Assembly: GCA_965214705.1 (NCBI GenBank)
Contig: CBDCCI010000001.1
Coordinates: forward strand, 96,001 to 160,000
DNA length: 64,000 nucleotides
DNA from: Alphaproteobacteria bacterium
GTDB lineage: Bacteria; Pseudomonadota; Alphaproteobacteria; UBA828
Direction: 5' to 3'
This document shows positions 10,789 through 55,864 of the stretch, in pieces; position 1 is the stretch's first letter, and every line of letters starts with the position of its first letter. The notes below the pieces were generated by a model, which was not told the DNA's origin, ran no database searches, and worked only from the letters and a program-made list of their open reading frames with translations. Position numbers and translations under genes: made by a program.

Positions 10789-10814
10789 ATTCGCAGGTGC
10801 GCCGCTATGTGGCG

Positions 10815-11663
10815 TTACGAGCGAATCCCGCGCAGCCGCTCGCTCCGCCGCCGCAATAGCTCCACCATCGTCAACAAAATGATCGACACGACCACCAGGA
10901 GCGTGGCGACCGCCAGGATGGTCGGGCGGATCTCCTCGCGAATCCCTGAGAACATCTTCCAGGGGATCGTTCGCTGTTCCACCGAGCCCACGAACAGCAC
11001 CACCACCACCTCGTCGAAAGAGGTGATGAACGCGAGCAAAGCGCCCGATATGACGCCGGGCAGGATGAGCGGCACGATCACAACGAAGAAGGTACGGGTC
11101 GGGCTCGACCCGAGGCTTGCGGCCGCACGGGTCAGCGAGTGGTCGAAGCCCACCAACGTCGCCGTCACCGTGATGATGACGAACGGGATGCCCAACGCCG
11201 CATGGGCAAGAATGACGCCGACGTGCGTCGAGGCGAGTCCGATCCGCGCATAAAAGAAATACATGCCCGCGGCCGAGATGATGAGCGGCACGATCATCGG
11301 CGATATCAACAGCGCCATGATGGTTTTTCTGAAGGGCATTTCGGGTCTGCTTAACCCGAGCGCCGCCAGGGTGCCGAGGAATGTGGATATCAGCGTGGCA
11401 AATACCGCGATGAGGAAGCTGTTCTGTACCGCTCTTTGCCATGAGTCCTCGGTAAAAAACTCTTGGTACCACTTCGTGCTGTAGCCTGCTGGATCGAAGG
11501 CGAGCATTTCGGGCGTGAAAGTAAAATAAGGAAGCTCGTTGAAGCTGAGCGGAATAATGACGAAAATCGGACCGACCAAGAAAATGAAAATCAGCACGCA
11601 CAGCGTCCGGAACGTATAGTACCAAGCGCGTTCCGAGTGTGTGGCGTGCAGCGGCGGCGGCAT
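10815..11663 (-). CDS. Polyamine-type ABC permease (PotC-like)
   Basis: SPMIVPLII, AAASLGSSP EAA loop, FITSFDEVVV. Confidence 0.88.
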   Translation of the reverse strand: MPPPLHATHSERAWYYTFRTLCVLIFIFLVGPIFVIIPLSFNELPYFTFTPEMLAFDPAGYSTKWYQEFFTEDSWQRAVQNSFLIAVFATLISTFLGTLAALGLSRPEMPFRKTIMALLISPMIVPLIISAAGMYFFYARIGLASTHVGVILAHAALGIPFVIITVTATLVGFDHSLTRAAASLGSSPTRTFFVVIVPLILPGVISGALLAFITSFDEVVVVLFVGSVEQRTIPWKMFSGIREEIRPTILAVATLLVVVSIILLTMVELLRRRSERLRGIRS

Positions 11664-11668
11664 GTGCG

Positions 11669-12931
11669 CTATCCGAGCTTCATGTTGGCCACGCCCACGA
11701 TCCTGTCATAGAGGAAGTAAAGCAGCAGGACGAGCGCCAACAGAATCACGCCTAGAGCTGCGGCCAGACCCCAGTTCAGAGTCTCGCTGATGTGAAGGGC
11801 GATAATGTTCGAGATGAACGTGCCGGTTCGCCCTCCGACAAGAGCCGGCGTGATGTAATAGCCGATCGAAAGAATGAAAACCAGAATGCAGCCCGCGCCG
11901 ATTCCCGGCACGGTATTGGGCATATAGACCTTGATAAAGCCAGTGAACGGCGATGCCCCGAGCGAGCGTGCGGCCCGCATATACGAAGAGGGAATCGTTT
12001 TCATGACGGAATAGAGGGGCAGAATCATGAAGGGTAAGAGAATATGCGTCATCGCCACGAACGTACCGATCTTGTTGTGAATCATCTGCAAACGACCGTC
12101 TTCGGAAATAATTCCCAGGAAGACCATCAGGTCGTTCAACACGCCCTCGGACTGCAGCAGCGCGATCCACGCGGTCGTCCTGACCAACAGAGAGGTCCAG
12201 AATGGCAACAAGACGAGAATCAGCAGGAGATTGCTATGGCGTGGCGGTAACGTCGCCAGGAGGAAGGCAATCGGATAACCGAGTAGCAAGCAGAATATCG
12301 TGATGAGCGCACTCATCCACAACGTGCGATAAAATAGGAACAAGTATATTCGTCGTTCTTCTGCCTTCCAGGAAATTTTGCCCTTGTAGTCAACCCGAAG
12401 GTCGACAGCCGACAAGAAGTAGCTTTCGGTTACGTTGCTCGATTCCTGATAAATCAGTTGCCAGGTTGCAAGGTCTGCCCAGCGTTGATCAATTGCTATA
12501 ACCTGGTCCTTGAAGGGGGCCTCGGTTATACGTTTGGCTCGTCGTCCCGATTTCCGGAACAAGCTCATCACTCCGGACTTTTCGTAATTCAAGCGCCGTC
12601 CGGCACGGCCTAACGTCTTATCCTTGAATGACTCCTGAATATCCAGCACCAGGGCTTCGTACACGAATTCCGGCGGCAACTCCTCGCTCCCCGGATCCCA
12701 GCTTTGAATGGCCAGCGTTGTACGGGGAAGAACGGATGAAACGATTTGGTTGTCGACGCTTCTAAACAACATGTCGATGACGGGAAAAACGAATGTAATC
12801 ATCAAGAACGCCAGAATAGGGACGACCAACAGGAATGTGCGAATGCGCCTGCGAGCCATCGCCCGCCGTAGGCTCGTCTTCAATGGCACGCCATCGGCGG
12901 TTCGCAGGGTGTTATCGGCGACCGTCGACAT
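11669..12931 (-). CDS. Polyamine-type ABC permease (PotB-like) with large periplasmic insert
   Basis: LLPFWTSLLVRT, LLPFMILPLY, AARSLGASP, GYYITPALVGG. Confidence 0.88.
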   Translation of the reverse strand: MSTVADNTLRTADGVPLKTSLRRAMARRRIRTFLLVVPILAFLMITFVFPVIDMLFRSVDNQIVSSVLPRTTLAIQSWDPGSEELPPEFVYEALVLDIQESFKDKTLGRAGRRLNYEKSGVMSLFRKSGRRAKRITEAPFKDQVIAIDQRWADLATWQLIYQESSNVTESYFLSAVDLRVDYKGKISWKAEERRIYLFLFYRTLWMSALITIFCLLLGYPIAFLLATLPPRHSNLLLILVLLPFWTSLLVRTTAWIALLQSEGVLNDLMVFLGIISEDGRLQMIHNKIGTFVAMTHILLPFMILPLYSVMKTIPSSYMRAARSLGASPFTGFIKVYMPNTVPGIGAGCILVFILSIGYYITPALVGGRTGTFISNIIALHISETLNWGLAAALGVILLALVLLLYFLYDRIVGVANMKLG

Positions 12932-12972
12932 GCGCGCTGGCCTACGTCTCGCTCAGGTGCCTTGAAGTAAAG

Positions 12973-13003
12973 GGGGCAGGACGCAACGATGCGCCCCGCC
13001 CCT
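12973..13003 (-). terminator. GC-rich stem-loop downstream of the binding-protein gene (terminator or mRNA stabiliser)
   Basis: Imperfect inverted repeat GGGGC..GCGCA-TCGT-TGCGT..GCCCC on minus, followed by a short T run. Confidence 0.4.
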
Positions 13004-13014
13004 CCTAAGCTCTG

Positions 13015-14118
13015 CTACTTGGCGAGCCAGGTGTTGAACACCTCGTCGAGCTCCGCCCGGTGGTCGGCCCACCAGACGTAGTCGAAGTCGAAGAGGGTCT
13101 CGGCGTTGTTGGGATCGGTCGGCATGTGGGGCTTCATGTCGATGCCGAGATCGGCATGGTTGCCCACGAGCGGCGCCGACGAGTAGCGCGCCGGACCGTA
13201 GGAGATGAACTTCGCCTGGTCCGCCAGACGCTGCGTATCGGTGGCGAAGTAGAGATACGCCTTCACCGCATCGAGATCCTTGACGCCGACCGGCACGACC
13301 CAGCCGTCGAGATCGAAAATCTGCCGGTCCCACAGCATGGCGATGGGCTGGTTCTTCTCCGCGATGGCCGAGAAGAGGCGGCCGTTGTAGGCCGAGGCAA
13401 TGACGACCTCGCCGTCCGCCAGCAGCTGCGGCGGTTGGGCTCCCTTGGTCCACCAGACCACCTGATCCTTGATGGTATCGAGCTTTGCCAAGGCACGGCT
13501 CACGCCCTCGGACGTGCTGAGCATGCCGTAGACATCTGCAGGTGCCACGCCATCGGCGAGCAGCGCCCATTCGAGATTGTTGATGGGCCGCCTCTCCAGC
13601 GAGCGCTTGCCGGGGAACTTCTCCAGGTCGAACACGTCGGCAATGGTGGACGGCTGCTCACCCTCGAAGACATCGGTGCGATAGCCGAAGGTCGTGGAAT
13701 AGACGATCTGCGGGATGAAGCAGTTGGTCCCGCCCGGTGACAGCGTGCCGGCGAAGAAATCCTCCGACGCAGGGGTCCCGTCCGGCGCGGGAGCCAGCCA
13801 CGTGTCGGGATCGATTTCCATGATCAGGCCTTCGTCGCACGCGGTAATCGCATCGGCTGCGACCATGTCGACGATGTCCCAAGTGACGTTGTTCGACTCC
13901 ACCTGTGCCCGAACCTTGGCCAGCCCTTCGGCGGCGTTGTCGTCATTGATGATGTTGATGTCGGGGTTCGCGGCCATGTAGGGGTCGTGATAGGCCTTCT
14001 GCTGGCTCGCCGTATAGGCGCCGCCCCACGACACGATCGTGAGGTCAAGTGCCTGGGCACTGCCAACCGCCAACGCGACGCCGGCGGCAACGACAGTCGT
14101 ACTCAATAGCCATCTCAT
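13015..14118 (-). CDS. Polyamine-type ABC substrate-binding protein (PotD/PotF-like)
   Basis: Signal peptide; LTIVSWGGAYTASQ, WDIVD, FPGKRSL, QLLADGEV. Confidence 0.88.
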   Translation of the reverse strand: MRWLLSTTVVAAGVALAVGSAQALDLTIVSWGGAYTASQQKAYHDPYMAANPDINIINDDNAAEGLAKVRAQVESNNVTWDIVDMVAADAITACDEGLIMEIDPDTWLAPAPDGTPASEDFFAGTLSPGGTNCFIPQIVYSTTFGYRTDVFEGEQPSTIADVFDLEKFPGKRSLERRPINNLEWALLADGVAPADVYGMLSTSEGVSRALAKLDTIKDQVVWWTKGAQPPQLLADGEVVIASAYNGRLFSAIAEKNQPIAMLWDRQIFDLDGWVVPVGVKDLDAVKAYLYFATDTQRLADQAKFISYGPARYSSAPLVGNHADLGIDMKPHMPTDPNNAETLFDFDYVWWADHRAELDEVFNTWLAK

Positions 14119-14202
14119 CTCGCTTACTCCCCTCTCGTTTGCCGGACACACCGGCGGGTTCTCAAGTCTCGCATCGGCAACACCGATACGTCTTGATCTG
14201 CT

Positions 14203-15125
14203 CTAACCGGGCTCGGCTGCGTCAACCGGAGCGTCCAGCGCCCGGCAATCTTCTGCAGCCCAGCCCAGGTTGACGTCCGTTCCCTCCCGCAACGCTGCAT
14301 GCCGATCTGTGTTGGGAATCTTCACAACGAACTCGTCAGCTCCCGCGACCGACAGGCGCGCACGGATATGATCTCCCAGATAGATCAACTCCTCGACGCG
14401 ACCGACAATCGAGTTATCCGCCTCTCCGTCTTCGCATGCGACGATAACGCGCTCAGGACGGAGCGAAAGGGTCGTGCGTGCGCCCGCTCCCTCGACCTTC
14501 ACATTGAGGGCTCGAATGGTGCCACCACCATCCAAATTCACCTGGCAATGGTTCCCTTCAACGGAATTCACCTTGCCGCACAAACGATTGTTCTCGCCGA
14601 TAAACTGCGCAACGAAGGCGTTCTCCGGTTGCTCGTACAGCGCGCTAGGACTTGCTAATTGCTGAATTACACCATCATTAAAGACCGCAATCCGATTGGA
14701 CATGGTCAATGCTTCGGACTGATCGTGCGTGACGTAGACGATCGTGACGCCGAGCTCTTCGTGAAGATGCTTGATTTCGTACTGCATCTCCTCCCGCAGA
14801 TTCTTGTCCAAGGCGCCGAGAGGCTCATCCATAAGCACCAAGTCAGGCTCGAATACCAATGCCCGTGCCACCGCCACGCGTTGCTGCTGGCCGCCCGAGA
14901 GTTGACCGGGCCGGCGGCCACCGAAGTCCGGCAGGCGAACCATGTCCAGCGCGCGCTTGACTTTCGCCTCGACCTCCGATCTCGGAATCCTTCGAACTTT
15001 CAGAGGAAACGCCAGGTTCTCCGTGACTGTCATGTGCGGAAACAGCGCGTAATCCTGGAAGACCATGCCGATATTTCGTCGATGCGGCGCAACTTTATTG
15101 ATCGGACGGTCGTTCAAATAAATTT
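14203..15125 (-). pseudogene. 3' part of PotA-like ABC ATPase interrupted by IS66 element
   Basis: IYLNDRPINKVAPHRRNIGMVFQDYALFPH, LSGGQQQR, DEPLGALD; Walker A lies on the other side of the IS. Confidence 0.9.
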
Positions 15126-15221
15126 GTAACTGCCCAGGTCTGATTCCGCCGAGCACTCACGCGTGATGGACTGATGCCTCTGGCCTGGTGCCGCTGACGT
15201 GGAGCGGAGCGGCGGGGGATT

Positions 15222-16763
15222 TCAGAAGCGCAGTACCGGGATTAGCTGCATGGGATCGGGGTGCGCCAGGGTTTCGAGGACATTCCAGCGCTGTTTTCGA
15301 GCGGTGGCGATGACGGACCGCAGGTTGGCGAAGTCGCAGGCACCTTGCATCGAGCGGAAGCCGCCTGAGATTTTCTGACGCAGCTTGCCCATTCGCAGAT
15401 CGCGCTCCGCCTCATTGTTCGAGAACGGGGTTCGCGGGTCGGTGAGGAAGCGCAGGCAGCCCTCCTTGTACTTCTGGAGCCGGAGCGCGAGGTTGTGACC
15501 GATGCGGCGCTTTTGTCGTCCGCGCTTTCCGGTCTGGAGCGGCGGCATCTCTTCGTGAGCGGCGATGGCACGTTCGAGGATGCGGTCCCAGGCTCGCGAG
15601 ATGCGGGCGACCAGCGATGCGGGCACGTCGCGATCATTCTTGCGGGCGAAGCGGGCGGCTCTGTTGGCACGGGAGAGCAGCTGGTGCATGCTCGTTGCCC
15701 AGTCTTCCTTCTCGATCTCGATCAGGGCCTGGAGCTCACGCAGGTGATGGGCGTTGCAGGCCCCGTGGCGCACGCCCTCGAGAGCGAAGTAGGTGGCATA
15801 GTCGTCATGGATGACGATGCCGTTGAGCTTCTCGTCGAAATGGCCGCGCCCGCTGGCGACGCGCAGGATGGTCAGCAACGGGGTGCACAGCACGTGGAGC
15901 CAATGGGTCCGGGCGGCGATGCGGATGCCGGTCTCGTCGAGGTGTTTGACCGGGGCTTCGGTGCGGATGATCTCTGCGACACGATCGAGGAAGCCCTCGA
16001 AGCGCCGGGCGGTGCGCCTGCCCATGGCGGCGATGGTGGCCGTTGAGATCTTGACCGCGAAGAGATCGCTCATGACCTCGGCGACGCGCTTCTCCGGAAT
16101 GAACTGAGCGTGCAGCAGGTAGGTCACCCACGCGGTGATGCGCGGCCCGTACTGGACCGGGGCGCTCACGCCGTTCGGGAAGGCGGCTGTTGTCATGGTG
16201 CCGCAGGCGGCGCAGAGGCAGCGATGGCCGCGATGCTCGGTGGCCTCGAGGGGCTGCGGCTCGGGCACATCGAAGACCTGCCGGCAGACGGGGGCTCCGT
16301 GACGGTCGGCGTCCGACAGCGGCGCGCCGCAGCCCTCACAGGCGGACGGATCATGATCCACGACGTGGTCCGGGTTCTCGGTCCGCTCCAGGGTGGTTCC
16401 CTTGTGGCCCGGCTGACCGCCGCTGGGCCTGTCGGATTTGCCGCGCCGGCTCCGGGTGCGCTTCTCCTGGTCTGCGCTCTTCTTCTTCAGGCCGTCGCTG
16501 GCCGGCGGCCTGGAGCTGGTGGTGCTGTCGAGCGCGGCGCTGCGCTCAAGTTCGGCGATCCGCTCGCGCAAGCGGGCGTTCTCCCGCTCCAGCGCGTCGT
16601 TCTCCTTGACCAGCGCCGCGCTCAGGCGAAGCAGCCCCTGGCCCCATTCCCGGATGGCTTTGACGGCGGTCATCGCGAAGGATTGTGGGGTGAAAAGGTC
16701 CTGCAGGCACGCGAAAGCCTCGTCGTGAGCGGCGAGGTCCGCGTGCCAGCGCGACACTGTCAC
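15222..16763 (-). CDS. IS66-family DDE transposase (TnpC-like)
   Basis: Coiled coil, SSRPPASD, GGQPGHKG, CEGC/CAAC zinc finger, HLDETG, HDD, CNAHHLREL, FSNNEAERDLR. Confidence 0.92.
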   Translation of the reverse strand: MTVSRWHADLAAHDEAFACLQDLFTPQSFAMTAVKAIREWGQGLLRLSAALVKENDALERENARLRERIAELERSAALDSTTSSRPPASDGLKKKSADQEKRTRSRRGKSDRPSGGQPGHKGTTLERTENPDHVVDHDPSACEGCGAPLSDADRHGAPVCRQVFDVPEPQPLEATEHRGHRCLCAACGTMTTAAFPNGVSAPVQYGPRITAWVTYLLHAQFIPEKRVAEVMSDLFAVKISTATIAAMGRRTARRFEGFLDRVAEIIRTEAPVKHLDETGIRIAARTHWLHVLCTPLLTILRVASGRGHFDEKLNGIVIHDDYATYFALEGVRHGACNAHHLRELQALIEIEKEDWATSMHQLLSRANRAARFARKNDRDVPASLVARISRAWDRILERAIAAHEEMPPLQTGKRGRQKRRIGHNLALRLQKYKEGCLRFLTDPRTPFSNNEAERDLRMGKLRQKISGGFRSMQGACDFANLRSVIATARKQRWNVLETLAHPDPMQLIPVLRF

Positions 16764-17429
16764 AAACCCTCGTCAGCCTCGACGGCCATGATCGCGGCCA
16801 GCACCGCCAGGCGTTCGCCCGCCGGCATGGCCTCGTAGCGCCGGCCCCAGTTGGCCGCCTTGCGCTTGATGCGCTGGCGGTCGGTGAAGTTGCGGCCCGC
16901 GTAGCTCGCCCAGTGCACCCGGTCGGGCGCGAAGTTGAACCACACCGCCTCGGTCCGCACCTGGGCCTGGGTCGTCACCTGCAGCGCCAGCCGGCGCCAG
17001 CCCGCCAGCAACTCGTCATAGAGCGCAGACGGGTGGCCCGAGACCATCACCTGGCAGGGCAGACCCTTGAGCAGTTCGAGGAGCGCGACGTGGTCGGCCT
17101 CCTCGTACTCGAAGCGGTAGCGCTGCGACGAACGCCGGGTCGCGTGCAGATAGGGCGGATCGCTGTAGACCAGCTCCGGGCCCAGGAACGGGAACGAGGC
17201 CAGGAAGGAGTGGGCGCAGCCGTGCACCAACTCCACCGGGTAGCCACAGTCGAAGGACTCAAGCGCCCGCTCGTCGCGGTCAATCCCGATCGAGCGCACG
17301 GCCGCAGGCTTGCGCTTCATCAGCGCCCCGCCCCCCCAAGTGGCTCTCGATATAGACAGAGTGCGGGGGCATCAGCGCAATCAGCGCCTGGCTCAGACCG
17401 GTCGTCGCCTTCGATCCGAAATACCCCAC
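16760..17429 (-). pseudogene. Dam/D12-like DNA adenine methyltransferase with a +1 frameshift in a G7 run
   Basis: GAGGAG RBS, GTG start, MGYFGSKA..MPPHSVYIESHLGG then a frame change to GALMKRKP..IGID..YSDPPY; length 670 nt = 3n+1. Confidence 0.85.
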
Positions 17430-17581
17430 CGGCTGCTCCTCTCATGCGAGAGAGCAACCCATAGGCGAGCGTGCCTATACAGTCAAGGGCAGATCATCGA
17501 CGCGCCGACGGACAAACGGCACCGGCGGCGACCAACATCAGCACGCACTCAGATCTGGCGGCGGGGTACCTGGGTAGTTAC

Positions 17582-17794
17582 ATAAATTTCTCCATGAGTA
17601 GCCGGCTCAAAGCCAGCCAACATCATCAAGCACGTTGTCTTGCCAGATCCCGAGGGACCCAACATCGTCAGGAACTCACCGGTCTTGATGCTTAGATTGA
17701 GGTCCTTGACGACCAGGATCTCGCCGTCGTAGCTCTTCTGCACGCGGTCGAAGACCACGATATCCGGGGTATCGGTCGTCATCAAAACACCCAT
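17582..17794 (-). pseudogene. 5' part of PotA-like ABC ATPase
   Basis: [16 protein letters not shown] Walker A; ends at GEIY, which rejoins LNDRP in frame when the IS and one TSD copy are removed. Confidence 0.9.
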
Positions 17795-50526: not shown

Positions 50527-50553
50527 GCGCGGGTCGGGGACCTCTCGCCCTAG

Positions 50554-52200
50554 CCCGGATTTCTCACGAGCGTCCATTGTTGGGTTGTTTGGCGTTTGTC
50601 GTGGGTTTGGTTGGTAGCCTTGCGGTGTGGTCCGGGTAATGACGCAGGAGTGGCGGTGGCGCCGGGGGCGCGGTTGAGGCTGGAGCGGGTTTTTGGTTGT
50701 TGGCGGGAGGGTGGCAGCGGGCCTGAGGCTCGGCTCAGGTGCATAATCGGGCGTGAGCGCGTGCGAACTCGGGCGCGTGGGGTGCGCCTGAGGCCATGGC
50801 GATGCGGATGCGGCGGGTACTCAGGCGGACCTGGGCGCCGATCTTCAGCAGCTTGAGGCGGATCGAGCCGCAGGTAGCGCGGGCAAGGCGAGTTCCGGCG
50901 AGCGCGATGCGCCTGAGCGCTGCGAGCAGCACGTAGGCCATGGCGGCGAACCAGAGGCGGAGCTGGTTGGCGCGCATGGTCTGAGCCGAGGTGCGGTCTG
51001 AGAAGAGGTCGAGCTGGTACTCCTTGATGCGGTTCTCCATCTCGCCGCGGGCGCAGTAGAGGGTCTCGTAGAGTTCCCGCCGGTCGATGGCGGCCGCGCT
51101 CAGCGAGGTGACGACGAAGCGGGGGTTGGCGCGGCCCGGCATCCACTCCGCCTTGCCGACGACACGGCGCGGGCGCGACCAAGTCTTGCACGTGCGGTAG
51201 CGGAACTCGGTGAACAGCCGCGCCGGCTGGCCGCTCTCCCGCGAGCGGGCTTCGGCCAGGTCCAGGGCCGGTTGCAGGCGGTCCGTGAGCCGCGGGTTCC
51301 GGGCGAGCCCGAAGACATAGTCCACCCCGTTCGCCTCGCACCAGGCCATCAGCCCCTCGCGGGCGAAGCCTGAGTCTGCGCGCAGCACGATCTCCACTGC
51401 CGGCCAGCGGGCGCGGATGCGCGCGACGATGCGCGCCACCTCTTCGGCCGCGCCGGCGCTGGCGTCGATGTCGGCCCGCCTCAGCTTGGCGGCCAGCAGG
51501 TGATCGCCGCAGAAGATGTAGAGCGGCAGGTAGCAGTAGCAGTCGTAGTAGCCGTGGAAGAAGCGGCCTTCCTGATGGCCGTGCAGCGGGTCGTCGGTGG
51601 CGTCCAGATCGAGGACCAACCGCTCAGGGGCCTGCCCGTGGGCGTCGAGGAAGAGATCGACGAAGAGCGTCTCGATCGCCTCAGGCTCATGACCGATCCG
51701 GCGATAGCGATGGGCGCCCGAAGGCGCGTGCTCCAGCCGGTTCAGCGTCGACTTGCCCGCAAGCGGCGCACAGCCCGCACGCCCGGCCTCCAAACGCCCC
51801 AGCACCACCCCCAGCACGGGGTCGTGGCGCAGCGCGTCGTGGTCGATCAAGTCCTCGTAGCCCAGCGCGATCCCGAACACCCGCTGGCCCACCAGGGTGG
51901 CAACGTCGTGCACCACACGAGAGGCCGCGCGCCCGTCCGAGAAGCAGGCGGCGAAGCAATCCACCAGTCCGATCGCCCGGTCCGTGGCGCCCAGCAGCAG
52001 GGCGCCCGCGTCCGAGGTCATCACCCCGCCGCCGAAGTCGGCCACCACATCACGCCCGTTCAGGCGTGCAAACTGCATCGCGGGAGGACTACACTCTGCG
52101 GGCATCGGGGAACTCCTCTGCAGCCGGTGAAGTCTTTGTTGCAGAAGAGCTTTCGCACGTGCAGAGCCCCGATGCACACCATACTCGTGAGAAATCCGGG
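50554..52200 (-). mobile_element. IS1380-family insertion sequence, 1647 bp
   Basis: Perfect 17-bp IRs CCCGGATTTCTCACGAG / CTCGTGAGAAATCCGGG; CTAG on both flanks (50550-50553, 52201-52204). Confidence 0.92.
50735..52105 (-). CDS. IS1380-family DDE transposase
   Basis: F.GG.MTSDAGALLL, GYEDLIDHD, LDLDATDDPLHGHQEG, RADSGF, YCARGEMENRIKE. Confidence 0.93.
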   Translation of the reverse strand: MPAECSPPAMQFARLNGRDVVADFGGGVMTSDAGALLLGATDRAIGLVDCFAACFSDGRAASRVVHDVATLVGQRVFGIALGYEDLIDHDALRHDPVLGVVLGRLEAGRAGCAPLAGKSTLNRLEHAPSGAHRYRRIGHEPEAIETLFVDLFLDAHGQAPERLVLDLDATDDPLHGHQEGRFFHGYYDCYCYLPLYIFCGDHLLAAKLRRADIDASAGAAEEVARIVARIRARWPAVEIVLRADSGFAREGLMAWCEANGVDYVFGLARNPRLTDRLQPALDLAEARSRESGQPARLFTEFRYRTCKTWSRPRRVVGKAEWMPGRANPRFVVTSLSAAAIDRRELYETLYCARGEMENRIKEYQLDLFSDRTSAQTMRANQLRLWFAAMAYVLLAALRRIALAGTRLARATCGSIRLKLLKIGAQVRLSTRRIRIAMASGAPHAPEFARAHARLCT

Positions 52201-54021
52201 CTAGAACGCCGCCTCCAGCTCGTCGACGAAGCCGGCGATCACGTCGAGGCCGCGCGACCAAAACGCAGGGTCGCTCGCATCGAGGCCGAAGGGGGCCAGC
52301 AGCTCCCGGTGCCGGAGGCTGCCGCCGGCCCGCAGCATGTCCAGATACTTCTGCTCGAAGCCCTCAGGCTCGGCCCGATAGACCGCGTAGAGCGCATTCA
52401 CCAGGCACTCGCCGAAGGCGTAGGCGTAGACGTAGAACGGCGCGTGGATGAAGTGCGGGATGTAGGTCCAGTAGTGGCGGTACTCGTCGTGGAAGCGGAG
52501 CGCCGGACCCAGGCTCTCGCTCTGGACCGCGAGCCAGTGCTCGGAGAGTCGATCGGGCGTGAGCTCGCCTGAGCGGCGCTCCTCGTGCACGCGGCGCTCG
52601 AAGGCGCAGAAGGCGACCTGGCGCACCACGGTGTTCAGCATGTCCTCGACCTTGCCGACGAGCATGACCCGGCGGCGGACGGGGTCGCTCTCGCCGTCGA
52701 GCAGCGCGCGGAAGGTGAGCTGCTCGCCGAAGACCGAGGCGGTCTCGGCCAGCGTCAGCGGGGTCTCCGCCATCAAGAGGCCCTGCCCGCCCGCCAGCAC
52801 CTGATGCACCCCGTGGCCGAGCTCGTGGGCCAGAATCATCACGTCCCGCGTCTTGCCCTGGTAGTTGAGCAGCAGGTAGGGGTGCGCGCCCGGCACGGTG
52901 GGGTGGGCGAAGGCGCCGGGAGACTTGCCGTGGCGCACCGGAGCGTCGATCCAGTCATTGTCGAAGAAGCGCCAGCCGATGGCTGCCAATTCGGGCGAGA
53001 AGGCGCGGTAGGCCGCGAGCACGGCCTCCACCGCCTCATCCCAGCCGATCAGCCGATCGTCGTCCTCCGGGAGCGGCGCGGTGCGGTCCCAATAGTCGAG
53101 GCGGTCCCCGCCCATCCAGCGCGCCTTGAGCGCGCAATAGCGATGGGCGAGACGAGGCGCCGAGGCCTCGACGGCCGCAATCAGCGCGTCCACCACCTCG
53201 TCCTCCACCCGATTGCCGAGATTGCGCGCGGAGATCGGCCGCTCGAAGCCGCGCCACTGGTCCTCGATCTCCTTGTCCTTGGCCAGCGTGTTGGTGATGA
53301 GCGCGAAGGTGCGCACGTTCTCGCCGAGCACGGTGCCCAAAGCCTGCGCCGCCTCCTTGCGCACCTCCCGGTCCTTGTCCGAGAGCAGGTTGAGCGCATC
53401 TGCGCTGGTGAGCGCCTCGCCGCGCACGGGAAAGCGCAGCGCCGCCATGGTCTCGTCGAAGAGGCGCATCCAGGCCGCACGGCCAGCGACCTGCTTCTCG
53501 TGCAGCAGACGCTCCACCTCGTCCGAGAGCTGGAAGGGGCGGAACGCCCGCACGTCGCGCACCCAGGGCGCGTAGCGGGCGAGCGCCGGGGCCTGCAGCT
53601 TCTCCGTGAGTGCTGCGTCCTCGATCCGGTTGAGCTCGAGGGTGAGGAAGAGCAGCCGGCTGCTTGTGGCGGTGGTTTCTTCCCGGACGGTCTGGAAAAA
53701 CTGCGCCGTCTCGGCGTCGTCCATCGCCGTGCAGTAGACGAGGTAGGCGTAGCTCGTCAGCCGCTCCAGGGTCTCCTGGATCGCCTCGTAGCGCGCGATC
53801 AGGCCGCCCAAGGCCGCGCCATCGAGATCGGCGACGCGGCCCGCGAACTCCTCGTGCAGCAACTCGGCCGCCACAGCCGCCTGCGCCAGGTCGTGCTGGA
53901 GCTCGTCCGAGTCAGGCGCGGGGTAGAGGTCGGAGAGGTCCCACCCCGGCAGCGCCGCGTCGTCCCGCGCCTCTGCCGCGCTGTCGAGCCCTCGCGCCCT
54001 TCGCGCCGTCATTGCCGTCAC
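52201..54021 (-). CDS. M3-family oligoendopeptidase (PepF-like)
   Basis: WDLSDLY, GKSPGAF, LAHELGHGVH, LAETASVFGE, FYVYAYAFG. Confidence 0.92.
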   Translation of the reverse strand: MTAMTARRARGLDSAAEARDDAALPGWDLSDLYPAPDSDELQHDLAQAAVAAELLHEEFAGRVADLDGAALGGLIARYEAIQETLERLTSYAYLVYCTAMDDAETAQFFQTVREETTATSSRLLFLTLELNRIEDAALTEKLQAPALARYAPWVRDVRAFRPFQLSDEVERLLHEKQVAGRAAWMRLFDETMAALRFPVRGEALTSADALNLLSDKDREVRKEAAQALGTVLGENVRTFALITNTLAKDKEIEDQWRGFERPISARNLGNRVEDEVVDALIAAVEASAPRLAHRYCALKARWMGGDRLDYWDRTAPLPEDDDRLIGWDEAVEAVLAAYRAFSPELAAIGWRFFDNDWIDAPVRHGKSPGAFAHPTVPGAHPYLLLNYQGKTRDVMILAHELGHGVHQVLAGGQGLLMAETPLTLAETASVFGEQLTFRALLDGESDPVRRRVMLVGKVEDMLNTVVRQVAFCAFERRVHEERRSGELTPDRLSEHWLAVQSESLGPALRFHDEYRHYWTYIPHFIHAPFYVYAYAFGECLVNALYAVYRAEPEGFEQKYLDMLRAGGSLRHRELLAPFGLDASDPAFWSRGLDVIAGFVDELEAAF

Positions 54022-54818: not shown

Positions 54819-55089
54819 GCCCGTCTCCTGTGCTGCACGCCGGCGCGAGGGTGTCAGCACGTCGCTGTGAAAGCAATGCAACGTGCACTCCGGGACTTAA
54901 TCATTTCCCTCAATCGCCGGGCGCTCGCTCCGCTCGCTTGGCTCCGCGCCTGGCGGCGCGCGGCGCTAGCGCGCCGTCCGGGCCTGCGGCCCGGTTCCCG
55001 TCACGGCGAATTCCTCATCGGTTGCCGGGAACGTGCCCCAAACCATGGTGCGGTGCACAGGGAGGGGCGGCGCGGGGCAGCATCGCGGG

Positions 55090-55836
55090 ATGAGCCAGGA
55101 ACCATCCCGCGAGAACAGTCACGCCATGCAGAACGAACCCCCCAAGAGCACGACGGCCGCGGCATTCGGCCGCTCCTCCATCAAGCGCCTGCCGCCCAAG
55201 CTGCGCGAGGCCGTGGACGCGGCCATCGCGGACGGCGCCACCATCGACGAGATCACCGCCCGCATCCGGGCCGAAGGCGAGACATGCTCGCGCTCGGCCG
55301 TCGGCCGCTACGCCAAGAACATGCGCGACCTGATCCGCCAGCAGCAGGAGACCGACCGCACCATCAAGGCGTGGGTGGATGCGCTGGGCGAGCGGCCGGA
55401 GGGCCAGGCGGGGCTCATCCTGATCGAGACCCTGCGGACCATGGCGCTCGCCACCATGGCTCGTCTCAGCGCGCGGGAAGAGCCCGTGTCGACGGAGGAG
55501 CTCGCCCGCCTCGCCCTCACCCTCAAGCGCATCGAAGGCACCGACAAGCTCCGCAAAGACCGGGAGCGGGCGGCAAAGAAGGCGGCGAACGACGCAGACC
55601 GCGCCAAGCGCCAGGGCGGGCTCTCGCCGGAGGCGGTCGCCATCATCCGCGCGGAGGTAGAGGGCAGGCCCCCGCCACCCCCGCCTGCTCCCCGCACCGT
55701 CACGTCGGTGCCGGTGGACCCGTGGAACCCTGCCGAAGCCCGCCTATACCCATCGATCCCAGCTGATCCCAGCGAGTCCCGCTCGAATAATTCGTTCCCG
55801 TCTCATGGCATGTCAGAGGGAATGCCCGGCGGATAA
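55090..55836 (+). CDS. DUF3486 / Mu gp27-like phage protein, orphan
   Basis: GRSSIKRLPPKLRE, SRSAVGRY, GGLSPEAVAIIRAEV; start may be 55126. Confidence 0.75.
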   Translation: MSQEPSRENSHAMQNEPPKSTTAAAFGRSSIKRLPPKLREAVDAAIADGATIDEITARIRAEGETCSRSAVGRYAKNMRDLIRQQQETDRTIKAWVDALGERPEGQAGLILIETLRTMALATMARLSAREEPVSTEELARLALTLKRIEGTDKLRKDRERAAKKAANDADRAKRQGGLSPEAVAIIRAEVEGRPPPPPPAPRTVTSVPVDPWNPAEARLYPSIPADPSESRSNNSFPSHGMSEGMPGG

Positions 55837-55837
55837 A

Positions 55838-55864
55838 GATGCCCGGAACAAGTCGGGGCATGAC
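55838..55864. repeat. Alphaproteobacterial REP-like palindrome half
   Basis: GATGCCCGGAACAAGTCGGGGCATGAC hairpin between convergent genes. Confidence 0.55.

Follow-up and report, generated by a model that had tools for sequence, protein, structure and literature searches.

An IS66-family insertion sequence with a reduced Dam-like methylase gene upstream of its transposase

An insertion sequence (IS) of the IS66 family carries, in addition to its transposase, a gene for a small DNA adenine methylase related to Dam, here called mini-Dam. One copy lies in the 64,000-nucleotide stretch analysed (the window: positions 96,001 to 160,000 of contig CBDCCI010000001.1, assembly GCA_965214705.1, Alphaproteobacteria bacterium). 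The element is a recently active, multicopy IS, and its methylase is an accessory gene, dispensable in cis for transposition. The usual picture of an insertion sequence is a pair of ends flanking a transposase, whose regulation depends on the host, as that of IS10 and IS50 does on Dam. In this IS66 lineage, and in at least one element of the ISKra4 family, a minimal adenine methylase is encoded by the element itself, and the promoter in front of it is conserved and appears to be self-regulated. We hypothesise that methylase gene and promoter form a self-regulated cassette that gates expression of the transposase, a tentative reading drawn from sequence comparison, to which we give somewhat less than an even chance.

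The genome that contains the window (7.92 Mb in 3 contigs, 67% G+C) holds 12 full-length copies, every one with its own perfect 8-bp duplication. The 14-nt inverted ends match at 14 of 15 positions (all features are listed in Table 1). In the window the element interrupts a gene for an ABC-transporter ATPase, and the empty site is seen in an uninterrupted paralogue of this gene on contig C3, where the octamer ATAAATTT occurs once. The only open reading frames (ORFs) with family matches are those of the transposase and, upstream of it, the methylase, both on the minus strand. The transposase is intact and matches PF03050 (E = 3.5e-39, 135.3 bits, cut-off 23.1), DUF6444 (2.5e-10) and NF033517 (8.7e-85, 285.1 bits, above the cut-off of 180). 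No tnpA or tnpB ORFs are found in the element, which is therefore placed with the tnpC-only organisation and not with the canonical IS66 group; this single-transposase organisation we take to be the ISBst12 group of ISfinder. An 8-bp duplication and GTAA ends are typical of IS66. An earlier note on the window had described an IS66 element with a Dam-like methylase inside its terminal repeats, in the slot of tnpA and tnpB, and the ends, the duplication and the two genes all bear this out. An ABC-transporter operon at window positions 10811-15125 has a 4.3-kb paralogue at C3:383380-387694, 92.6% identical; BLAST similarity ends at the IS boundary, while the paralogue itself continues unbroken.

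As had been proposed, the methylase belongs to the element and not to a neighbour. In the 80 closest loci (methylase 87–97% identical) an IS66 transposase lies on the same strand in every case and directly downstream in 79, the pair at the 80th being split by an insert. These loci come from metagenome-assembled genomes labelled Alphaproteobacteria, Dehalococcoidia, Binatia and Tectimicrobiota, many of which hold many copies of the element; because matches were ranked by protein score, the set is biased towards intact frames. The methylase stop overlaps the GTG start of the transposase by 4 nt, and all of the 44 other unique elements examined share this overlap, from which we infer translational coupling of the two genes. 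Both genes are under purifying selection, with a median ratio of non-synonymous to synonymous substitution rates of 0.22 for the methylase and 0.28 for the transposase (26 pairs from 8 elements of the window element's own clade, hereafter the window clade).

The motifs GYFGSK, ESHLGG (an E.HLGGG-type motif I), IGID and DPPY, noticed earlier, are all found in the methylase frames. The frame of the window copy is lost within motif I, while the intact allele from elsewhere in the genome has both HLGGG and the catalytic DPPY; G32, D90, P91 and P92 are invariant among 44 aligned relatives. The description of the enzyme as Dam-like holds for its catalytic core and fails for the target-recognition domain and for curated cut-offs. 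The intact allele lies below the cut-offs of PF02086 (0.028, 14.6 bits against 22) and TIGR00571 (8.1e-6, 25.7 against 114.85), and matches phrog_56 among the phage models (7.2e-21) and MTase_II of the PADLOC defence library (2.5e-21). A structure model was built on the 44 relatives (predicted local distance difference test score 89.7, predicted template-modelling score 0.83) and aligned with 48,161 solved chains. The best matches are EcoDam (Z = 16.8), DpnM (16.7), Mcbe1 (16.6) and T4 Dam (16.3), other methylases scoring 14.0 or less, and Foldseek agrees. The modelled fold is that of the Dam catalytic core. Residues 1-167 of the model cover Dam residues 8-270 with just 146 aligned, and only about 55 residues separate GxG (32-34) from DPPY (90-93); the model thus lacks the target-recognition domain of about 100 residues that in Dam lies between the S-adenosylmethionine (AdoMet)-binding and catalytic halves. 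GATC specificity can therefore not be assumed. The model has an additional C-terminal pair of helices, residues 181-220, rich in Arg and Lys. Hia5 and Hin1523 are Dam relatives with a divergent recognition region that methylate adenine with minimal specificity, and they sit in Mu-like prophages without the Mom gene, Mom being the protein that protects Mu DNA from restriction (PMC3299994). By analogy they offer a precedent for loss of specificity, and not a test on mini-Dam. Mini-Dam, with a Dam core and no recognition domain, could be a compact adenine methylase, either non-specific or directed to the promoter dyad described below. A prediction of the homodimer, which bears on whether a dimer could read the dyad, gave a median score of 0.30 against a mark of 0.42. 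The other methylases of the genome are one canonical D12 enzyme and several of the N6_N4 family.

In IS10/Tn10 and IS50/Tn5, the host Dam acts on GATC sites and regulates transposition, and the earlier note had suggested, besides a shield against restriction or a rewriting of the host methylome, that the element controls its own ends in this way, so that a GATC (Dam-type) or GANTC (CcrM-type) mark would govern transposase binding. The sites it named are present, GATC at 17552-17555 (27 nt from one end) and GATTC at 15142-15146 (17 nt from the other). Neither is conserved among 13 representative elements, and there is no enrichment: the element has 18 GATC where the genome-wide density predicts 17.9, and 2 GANTC where it predicts 5.1. 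Furthermore, the enzyme is without the Dam domain that reads GATC, and a sister IS in the same genome has the same ends and no methylase. Background density, lack of conservation and the methylase-less sister ends leave control of the ends by a Dam or CcrM mark unsupported, and we give it almost no credence.

The idea that the transposon methylates itself is not supported for the window copy, whose methylase is a frameshifted pseudogene, with an N-terminal piece from 17429 to 17283 and the remainder, down to 16763, in another frame. Among the 12 full copies, seven have the intact 222-residue frame and a run of six G (G6) in the motif-I glycine codons; one such intact allele lies at C1:738243-738908. 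The other five, including that of the window, have G7, and share 10 substitutions and a second 1-nt indel relative to the seven intact copies; they differ from one another at one position and occupy five separate insertion sites. These shared differences, with the near-identity of the five copies and their different sites, imply a single origin of the frameshift, followed by at least four further transpositions in its lineage.

The sister IS is about 1.66 kb long, with a single ORF, GTAACTGCCCAGGT ends and 8-bp duplications, and is present in several copies. Its transposase is 56–59% identical to that of the window element and is sister to the window clade (support 98); the nearest relatives of the window transposase outside its own clade are thus methylase-less. 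It is the continued transposition of the frameshifted lineage, together with the sister IS, that marks the methylase as accessory and not needed in cis. The earlier note had taken it as telling against its proposal if homologous elements mostly lack the methylase. Here the outcome is mixed: the nearest sister lacks it and is multicopy, and five copies with a broken methylase have transposed. The genome offers a natural experiment: the methylase is intact in some copies of the element, frameshifted in others and absent from a sister with identical ends.

The same evidence bears on a possible role of the methylase as an obligatory cofactor of transposition, which replaces TnpA/TnpB and is needed at the ends. 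Its place in the tnpA/tnpB slot, and a conservation at least equal to that of the transposase, would fit such a role. The success of the frameshifted lineage argues against it, although the protein could come in trans from the seven intact copies; so do the sister IS, multicopy with identical ends, and the association of this methylase clade with an unrelated transposase, that of ISKra4. We consider a cofactor role most unlikely.

A slightly less remote, but still improbable, alternative is that the methylase is phase-variable, the motif-I G-run being a slippage tract that switches methylase and coupled transposase, with G7 as the OFF state. Three independent length changes are found at this run: besides G7 there are a G5 in the fragment C2:676404-677181 and, at locus L070, a G13 that keeps the frame, although this last may be either real slippage or a long-read assembly artefact. 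Most relatives keep G5–G6 at the motif-I glycine codons, but this is what GGG-GGC codons give at 67% G+C, and in L091 the run is interrupted. Among the genomic copies G7 occurs in all five of one lineage and G6 in all seven others, with no switching among copies. Both lengths are found in contigs assembled from public sequencing runs that may include the source sample of the genome, and which, being assembled, cannot show minority lengths. The shorter run accounts for 804 of a depth of 858 in run X1, 869 of 1112 in X2 and 63.6 of 63.6 in X5; the G7 remainder in X2, a depth of 243, is about 5.5 times that of the single-copy flank (44). These contigs break or diverge at 17581/17582. In L070 (L070:4001-4672) the G13 adds three residues within the motif-I codons.

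Other copies in the genome are less regular. In a thirteenth (C1:2066576-2071152) an insert of about 2.1 kb splits the methylase gene at around codon 40. Two relatives of 82% identity lie inverted and about 1.7 kb apart, at C1:1549935-1552294 (plus strand) and C1:1553980-1556339 (minus strand), each with an intact methylase and a frameshifted transposase, and may form a composite transposon. A 21-bp in-frame duplication in the N-terminal region of the transposase (an RRPGEEE repeat) is found at C2:50068-52544, C3:2219079-2221555, C3:2961265-2963741 and C3:2819842-2822350, and in one of these four an extra 32-bp insertion breaks the transposase. Fragments of the element are also present in the genome.

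Between the methylase-side end and the start codon there are a promoter-like element, a dyad and a hairpin, and together with the methylase gene these make up a portable cassette. The predicted promoter has the perfect dyad in its spacer, overlapping the -10. The pattern ATAG-N9-11-CTAT occurs once in the window, at the cassette, and outside the IS copies it is not enriched genome-wide (19 sites, where composition predicts about 55). The dyad promoter pattern is conserved in 13 representative relatives of the window clade. It was also found among 78 loci of a distant methylase clade, 41 of which have a transposase directly downstream, namely 40 of the IS66 family and one of ISKra4 (NF033572, 6.5e-103), the remaining loci having prophage-like or plasmid-like surroundings or lying on contigs too short to show their surroundings (5 loci). 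Here TTGAC followed by ATAG-N-CTAT stands 35–43 nt upstream of the start in 38 of the 41 transposase-linked loci and in 7 of the 37 others; a shuffle control gives 0.1 of 78. The dyad thus occurs beside IS66 transposases only 22–31% identical to that of the window, beside one ISKra4 transposase, and at some loci with no transposase. No protein other than the methylase is shared by all these contexts, and so the methylase is the most probable factor to act on the dyad, whether it binds it, methylates it or does both.

At some relatives without an adjacent transposase (L097, L098, L101, L102, L110-L112 and L130) the dyad, as CATAGNC-N6-8-GNCTATG, is repeated two to five times in tandem 130 nt 5' of the methylase, often followed by 6-bp palindromes (TGGCCA, CTGCAG, GGTACC, CAGCTG). 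L110 adjoins a plasmid TraG gene. Such repeats could be operator or target arrays.

Leader hairpins of differing sequence can be seen by eye in other clades. RNAalifold, run on a MAFFT alignment of 22 leaders across the clades, predicted no pairs, because the hairpin arms do not align between clades. In a mainly gammaproteobacterial IS66 clade (L116, L129, L142, L149, L151, L158, L163, L171) the arms are near-invariant, TGATCC and GGATCA, and thus give no covariation signal. This clade has two GATC sites directly 3' of the -10, where the window clade has CTCTC / GAGAG. An Rfam scan of 15000-17700 returned nothing relevant, its sole match being a chance one to a microRNA (E = 0.23).

The hypothesis of a self-regulated cassette can be spelled out as follows. 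The cassette promoter would drive both genes, and the transposase would be made only from the cassette transcript, by coupling to translation of the methylase. The dyad over the -10 would be the control site of the cassette, and the methylase would switch off the promoter from which it is expressed, either as a protein bound to the dyad or through methylation of an adenine there or in the -10, or in both ways. On entry into a cell without the methylase or its mark there would be a burst of methylase and transposase, after which both would be held low, and more so with rising copy number, since the methylase acts in trans. If the methylase does gate the transposase, this would be an element-encoded epigenetic control of transposition, workable in hosts without Dam.

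Several points weigh against this hypothesis. Autoregulation is suggested solely by where the dyad lies. TATGGG, the -10 in the window clade, is weak, and a scan of 15000-17700 for consensus sigma-70 promoters found none. Within the window clade the hairpin does not exceed its controls: 82.5% of cells are paired, a value that 15 of 500 shuffles reach, and the covariation score is not significant. If the genes are coupled, the frameshift should lower transposase expression, because the upstream frame now stops 520 nt before the transposase start; the frameshifted lineage is nevertheless the youngest and most uniform, and its success is a difficulty for coupling. We conjecture that an internal ATG at 17320, preceded by a G-rich stretch, could restore coupling in the G7 copies. 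Restraint is also hard to square with the presence of at least 12 copies here and many per related metagenome-assembled genome.

A bolder version makes the cassette a self-contained epigenetic switch, in which mini-Dam marks an adenine in its own dyad or -10, and which has been taken up by at least two unrelated IS families. Unmarked incoming DNA would fire a burst, while marked resident copies would stay silent until replication or dilution. The element would then carry its own version of the clock that host Dam provides for IS10, and would count its copies through a shared pool of methylase. We think this unlikely.

The wider family of the methylase is large and spread patchily. At E ≤ 0.001 it counts 6018 representatives, of which 515 reach E ≤ 1e-30. 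There are also 3768 clusters at 90% identity, the best 120 of which are 71–96% identical to the query. A near-full-length relative is present in 2 of 400 other sampled genomes of the phylum. In PLSDB 94 plasmids match the family, of which 79 are conjugative, including IncP-1 with upf31.0; none of the 94 records covers 80% of the element. Relatives also occur in prophage-like settings (with portal and terminase genes) and beside plasmid RPA or TraG genes.

This distribution would suit a passenger anti-restriction methylase, with relaxed or no specificity, that pre-methylates the DNA of its carrier for transfer and has no part in transposition control, its regulation serving to limit toxicity. 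The missing target-recognition domain, the minimal specificity of Hia5 and Hin1523 in prophages without Mom (PMC3299994) and the dispensability of the methylase in cis all agree with such a role. However, in a tree of 36 methylases the 18 that are linked to transposases form one clade, apart from the 18 others of phage and plasmid type (SH-like approximate likelihood ratio test, SH-aLRT, 99), and the overlap with the transposase start is always kept. Both observations suggest that the methylase is integrated with transposase expression rather than carried as a loose passenger. An IS in the chromosome would also have little to gain by protecting the host in which it already resides. We regard a passenger role as the main rival to the self-regulated cassette, possible but on the unlikely side.

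Within the tree, the ISKra4-linked methylase nests in the transposase-linked clade. The linked transposases are far more diverged than their methylases: relative to the window element, a second clade (clade ii) has methylases 67–72% and transposases 30–31% identical, and a third group 54–63% and 22–25%. The window clade lies inside clade ii in the methylase tree. Forcing clade ii together costs 20.2 log-likelihood units (p = 0.045 in the approximately unbiased test), a borderline result and only a hint of cassette exchange. The divergent transposases, the methylase-less nearest relatives and the methylase tree together suggest that the cassette has moved between IS lineages, the alternative being loss in the sister lineage. 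One database protein, P0126, has the first ~150 residues of the methylase fused to an unrelated tail. This tail resembles, we believe, the C-terminus of an IS66 transposase, and P0126 is probably an internal-deletion derivative of such an element.

Two further repeats lie in the window. That at 50546-52205 (about 1.66 kb) has at least five copies elsewhere in the genome at 98–99% identity and is probably a different insertion sequence. The other, at 54894-55850 (about 0.9 kb), has five genomic copies elsewhere at 84–93% identity.

Table 1. Coordinates of the element, its genes and its predicted signals in the window
Feature	Position	Strand	Remarks
IS66-family insertion sequence, one copy	15126-17581	genes on -	2456 bp
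Terminal inverted repeat, transposase-side end, GTAACTGCCCAGGT	15126-15139	+	same ends in 12/12 genomic copies and in relatives
Terminal inverted repeat, methylase-side end, GTAACTACCCAGGT on - strand	17568-17581	-	inverted-repeat comparison, genomic copies
Target-site duplication, 8 bp, ATAAATTT, left copy	15118-15125		direct repeat
Target-site duplication, 8 bp, ATAAATTT, right copy	17582-17589		direct repeat
IS66-family DDE transposase, 513 aa, intact	15222-16763	-	PF03050, DUF6444, NF033517
GTGA, methylase stop overlapping transposase start (GTG)	16760-16763	-	4 nt
Mini-Dam DNA adenine methylase gene, frameshifted pseudogene here	16760-17429	-	intact 222-aa allele elsewhere in genome
Methylase frameshift site, G7 run (C7 on +) in motif-I Gly codons	17331-17337	-	one base over in-frame G6
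Predicted hairpin of the 5' untranslated region, pairing GAGAGGAG ribosome-binding region	17431-17459	-	-20.5 kcal/mol, z -4.1
Predicted cassette promoter	17458-17486	-	-35 TTGACT 17486-17481, 17-nt spacer, -10 TATGGG 17463-17458; read from sequence
Perfect dyad ATAGGC-N6-GCCTAT	17461-17478	-	in spacer, overlaps -10
Interrupted ABC-transporter ATPase gene, C-terminal part	14203-15156	-	ABC_tran and TOBE_2
Interrupted ABC-transporter ATPase gene, N-terminal part	17549-17794	-	81 codons

In a literature search outside ISfinder, TnCentral, REBASE and subscription papers, no account came up of an IS66 or ISKra4 element that carries a methylase. Each part has known counterparts, in the IS66 family, in transporter IS or among the orphan Dam-like methylases of mobile elements. 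What seems to be undescribed is their combination: a Dam without recognition domain, a dyad promoter and coupling to the transposase, common to divergent IS66 lineages and an ISKra4 element.

Compared with IS66 elements of the single-transposase type, the element is alike in its DDE transposase, 8-bp duplication, GTAA ends and absence of tnpA/tnpB, and differs by a second gene, a methylase with its own predicted promoter whose stop overlaps the transposase start. Transporter IS (tIS) are described as IS derivatives with passenger genes (PMC9330008); the element resembles them in that a non-transposase gene lies inside the inverted repeats of all copies and moves with the IS. It differs in that the methylase lies upstream of the transposase, is apparently coupled to it, and is conserved across transposases 22–31% identical.

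As for the enzyme, EcoDam, T4 Dam and DpnM (D12-class alpha-group N6-adenine methylases) share with it the fold (Z 16.3–16.8), DPPY and the GxG AdoMet motif, whereas the mini-Dam is about 100 residues shorter, has no recognition domain in the model and has the extra helical hairpin at 181-220. Hia5, Hin1523 and Nme1821, compared here by description (PMC3299994), are likewise Dam-related orphan enzymes on mobile elements with a recognition region unlike that of Dam, but they have 281 residues, keep a divergent recognition region and lie in prophages. The orphan enzymes of plasmids and prophages (IncP-1 upf31.0, annotated as 'putative site-specific DNA-methyltransferase') belong to the same family (42–58% identical), and some share the dyad promoter; unlike mini-Dam they are found without a linked transposase, and in the tree they are sister to the IS-borne clade. 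IS10 and IS50 are alike in idea, in that adenine methylation at the transposase promoter makes transposition depend on whether the DNA is methylated. In those elements the enzyme is the host Dam, whereas the present element brings its own, has no conserved GATC, and has as its candidate site the dyad over the -10.

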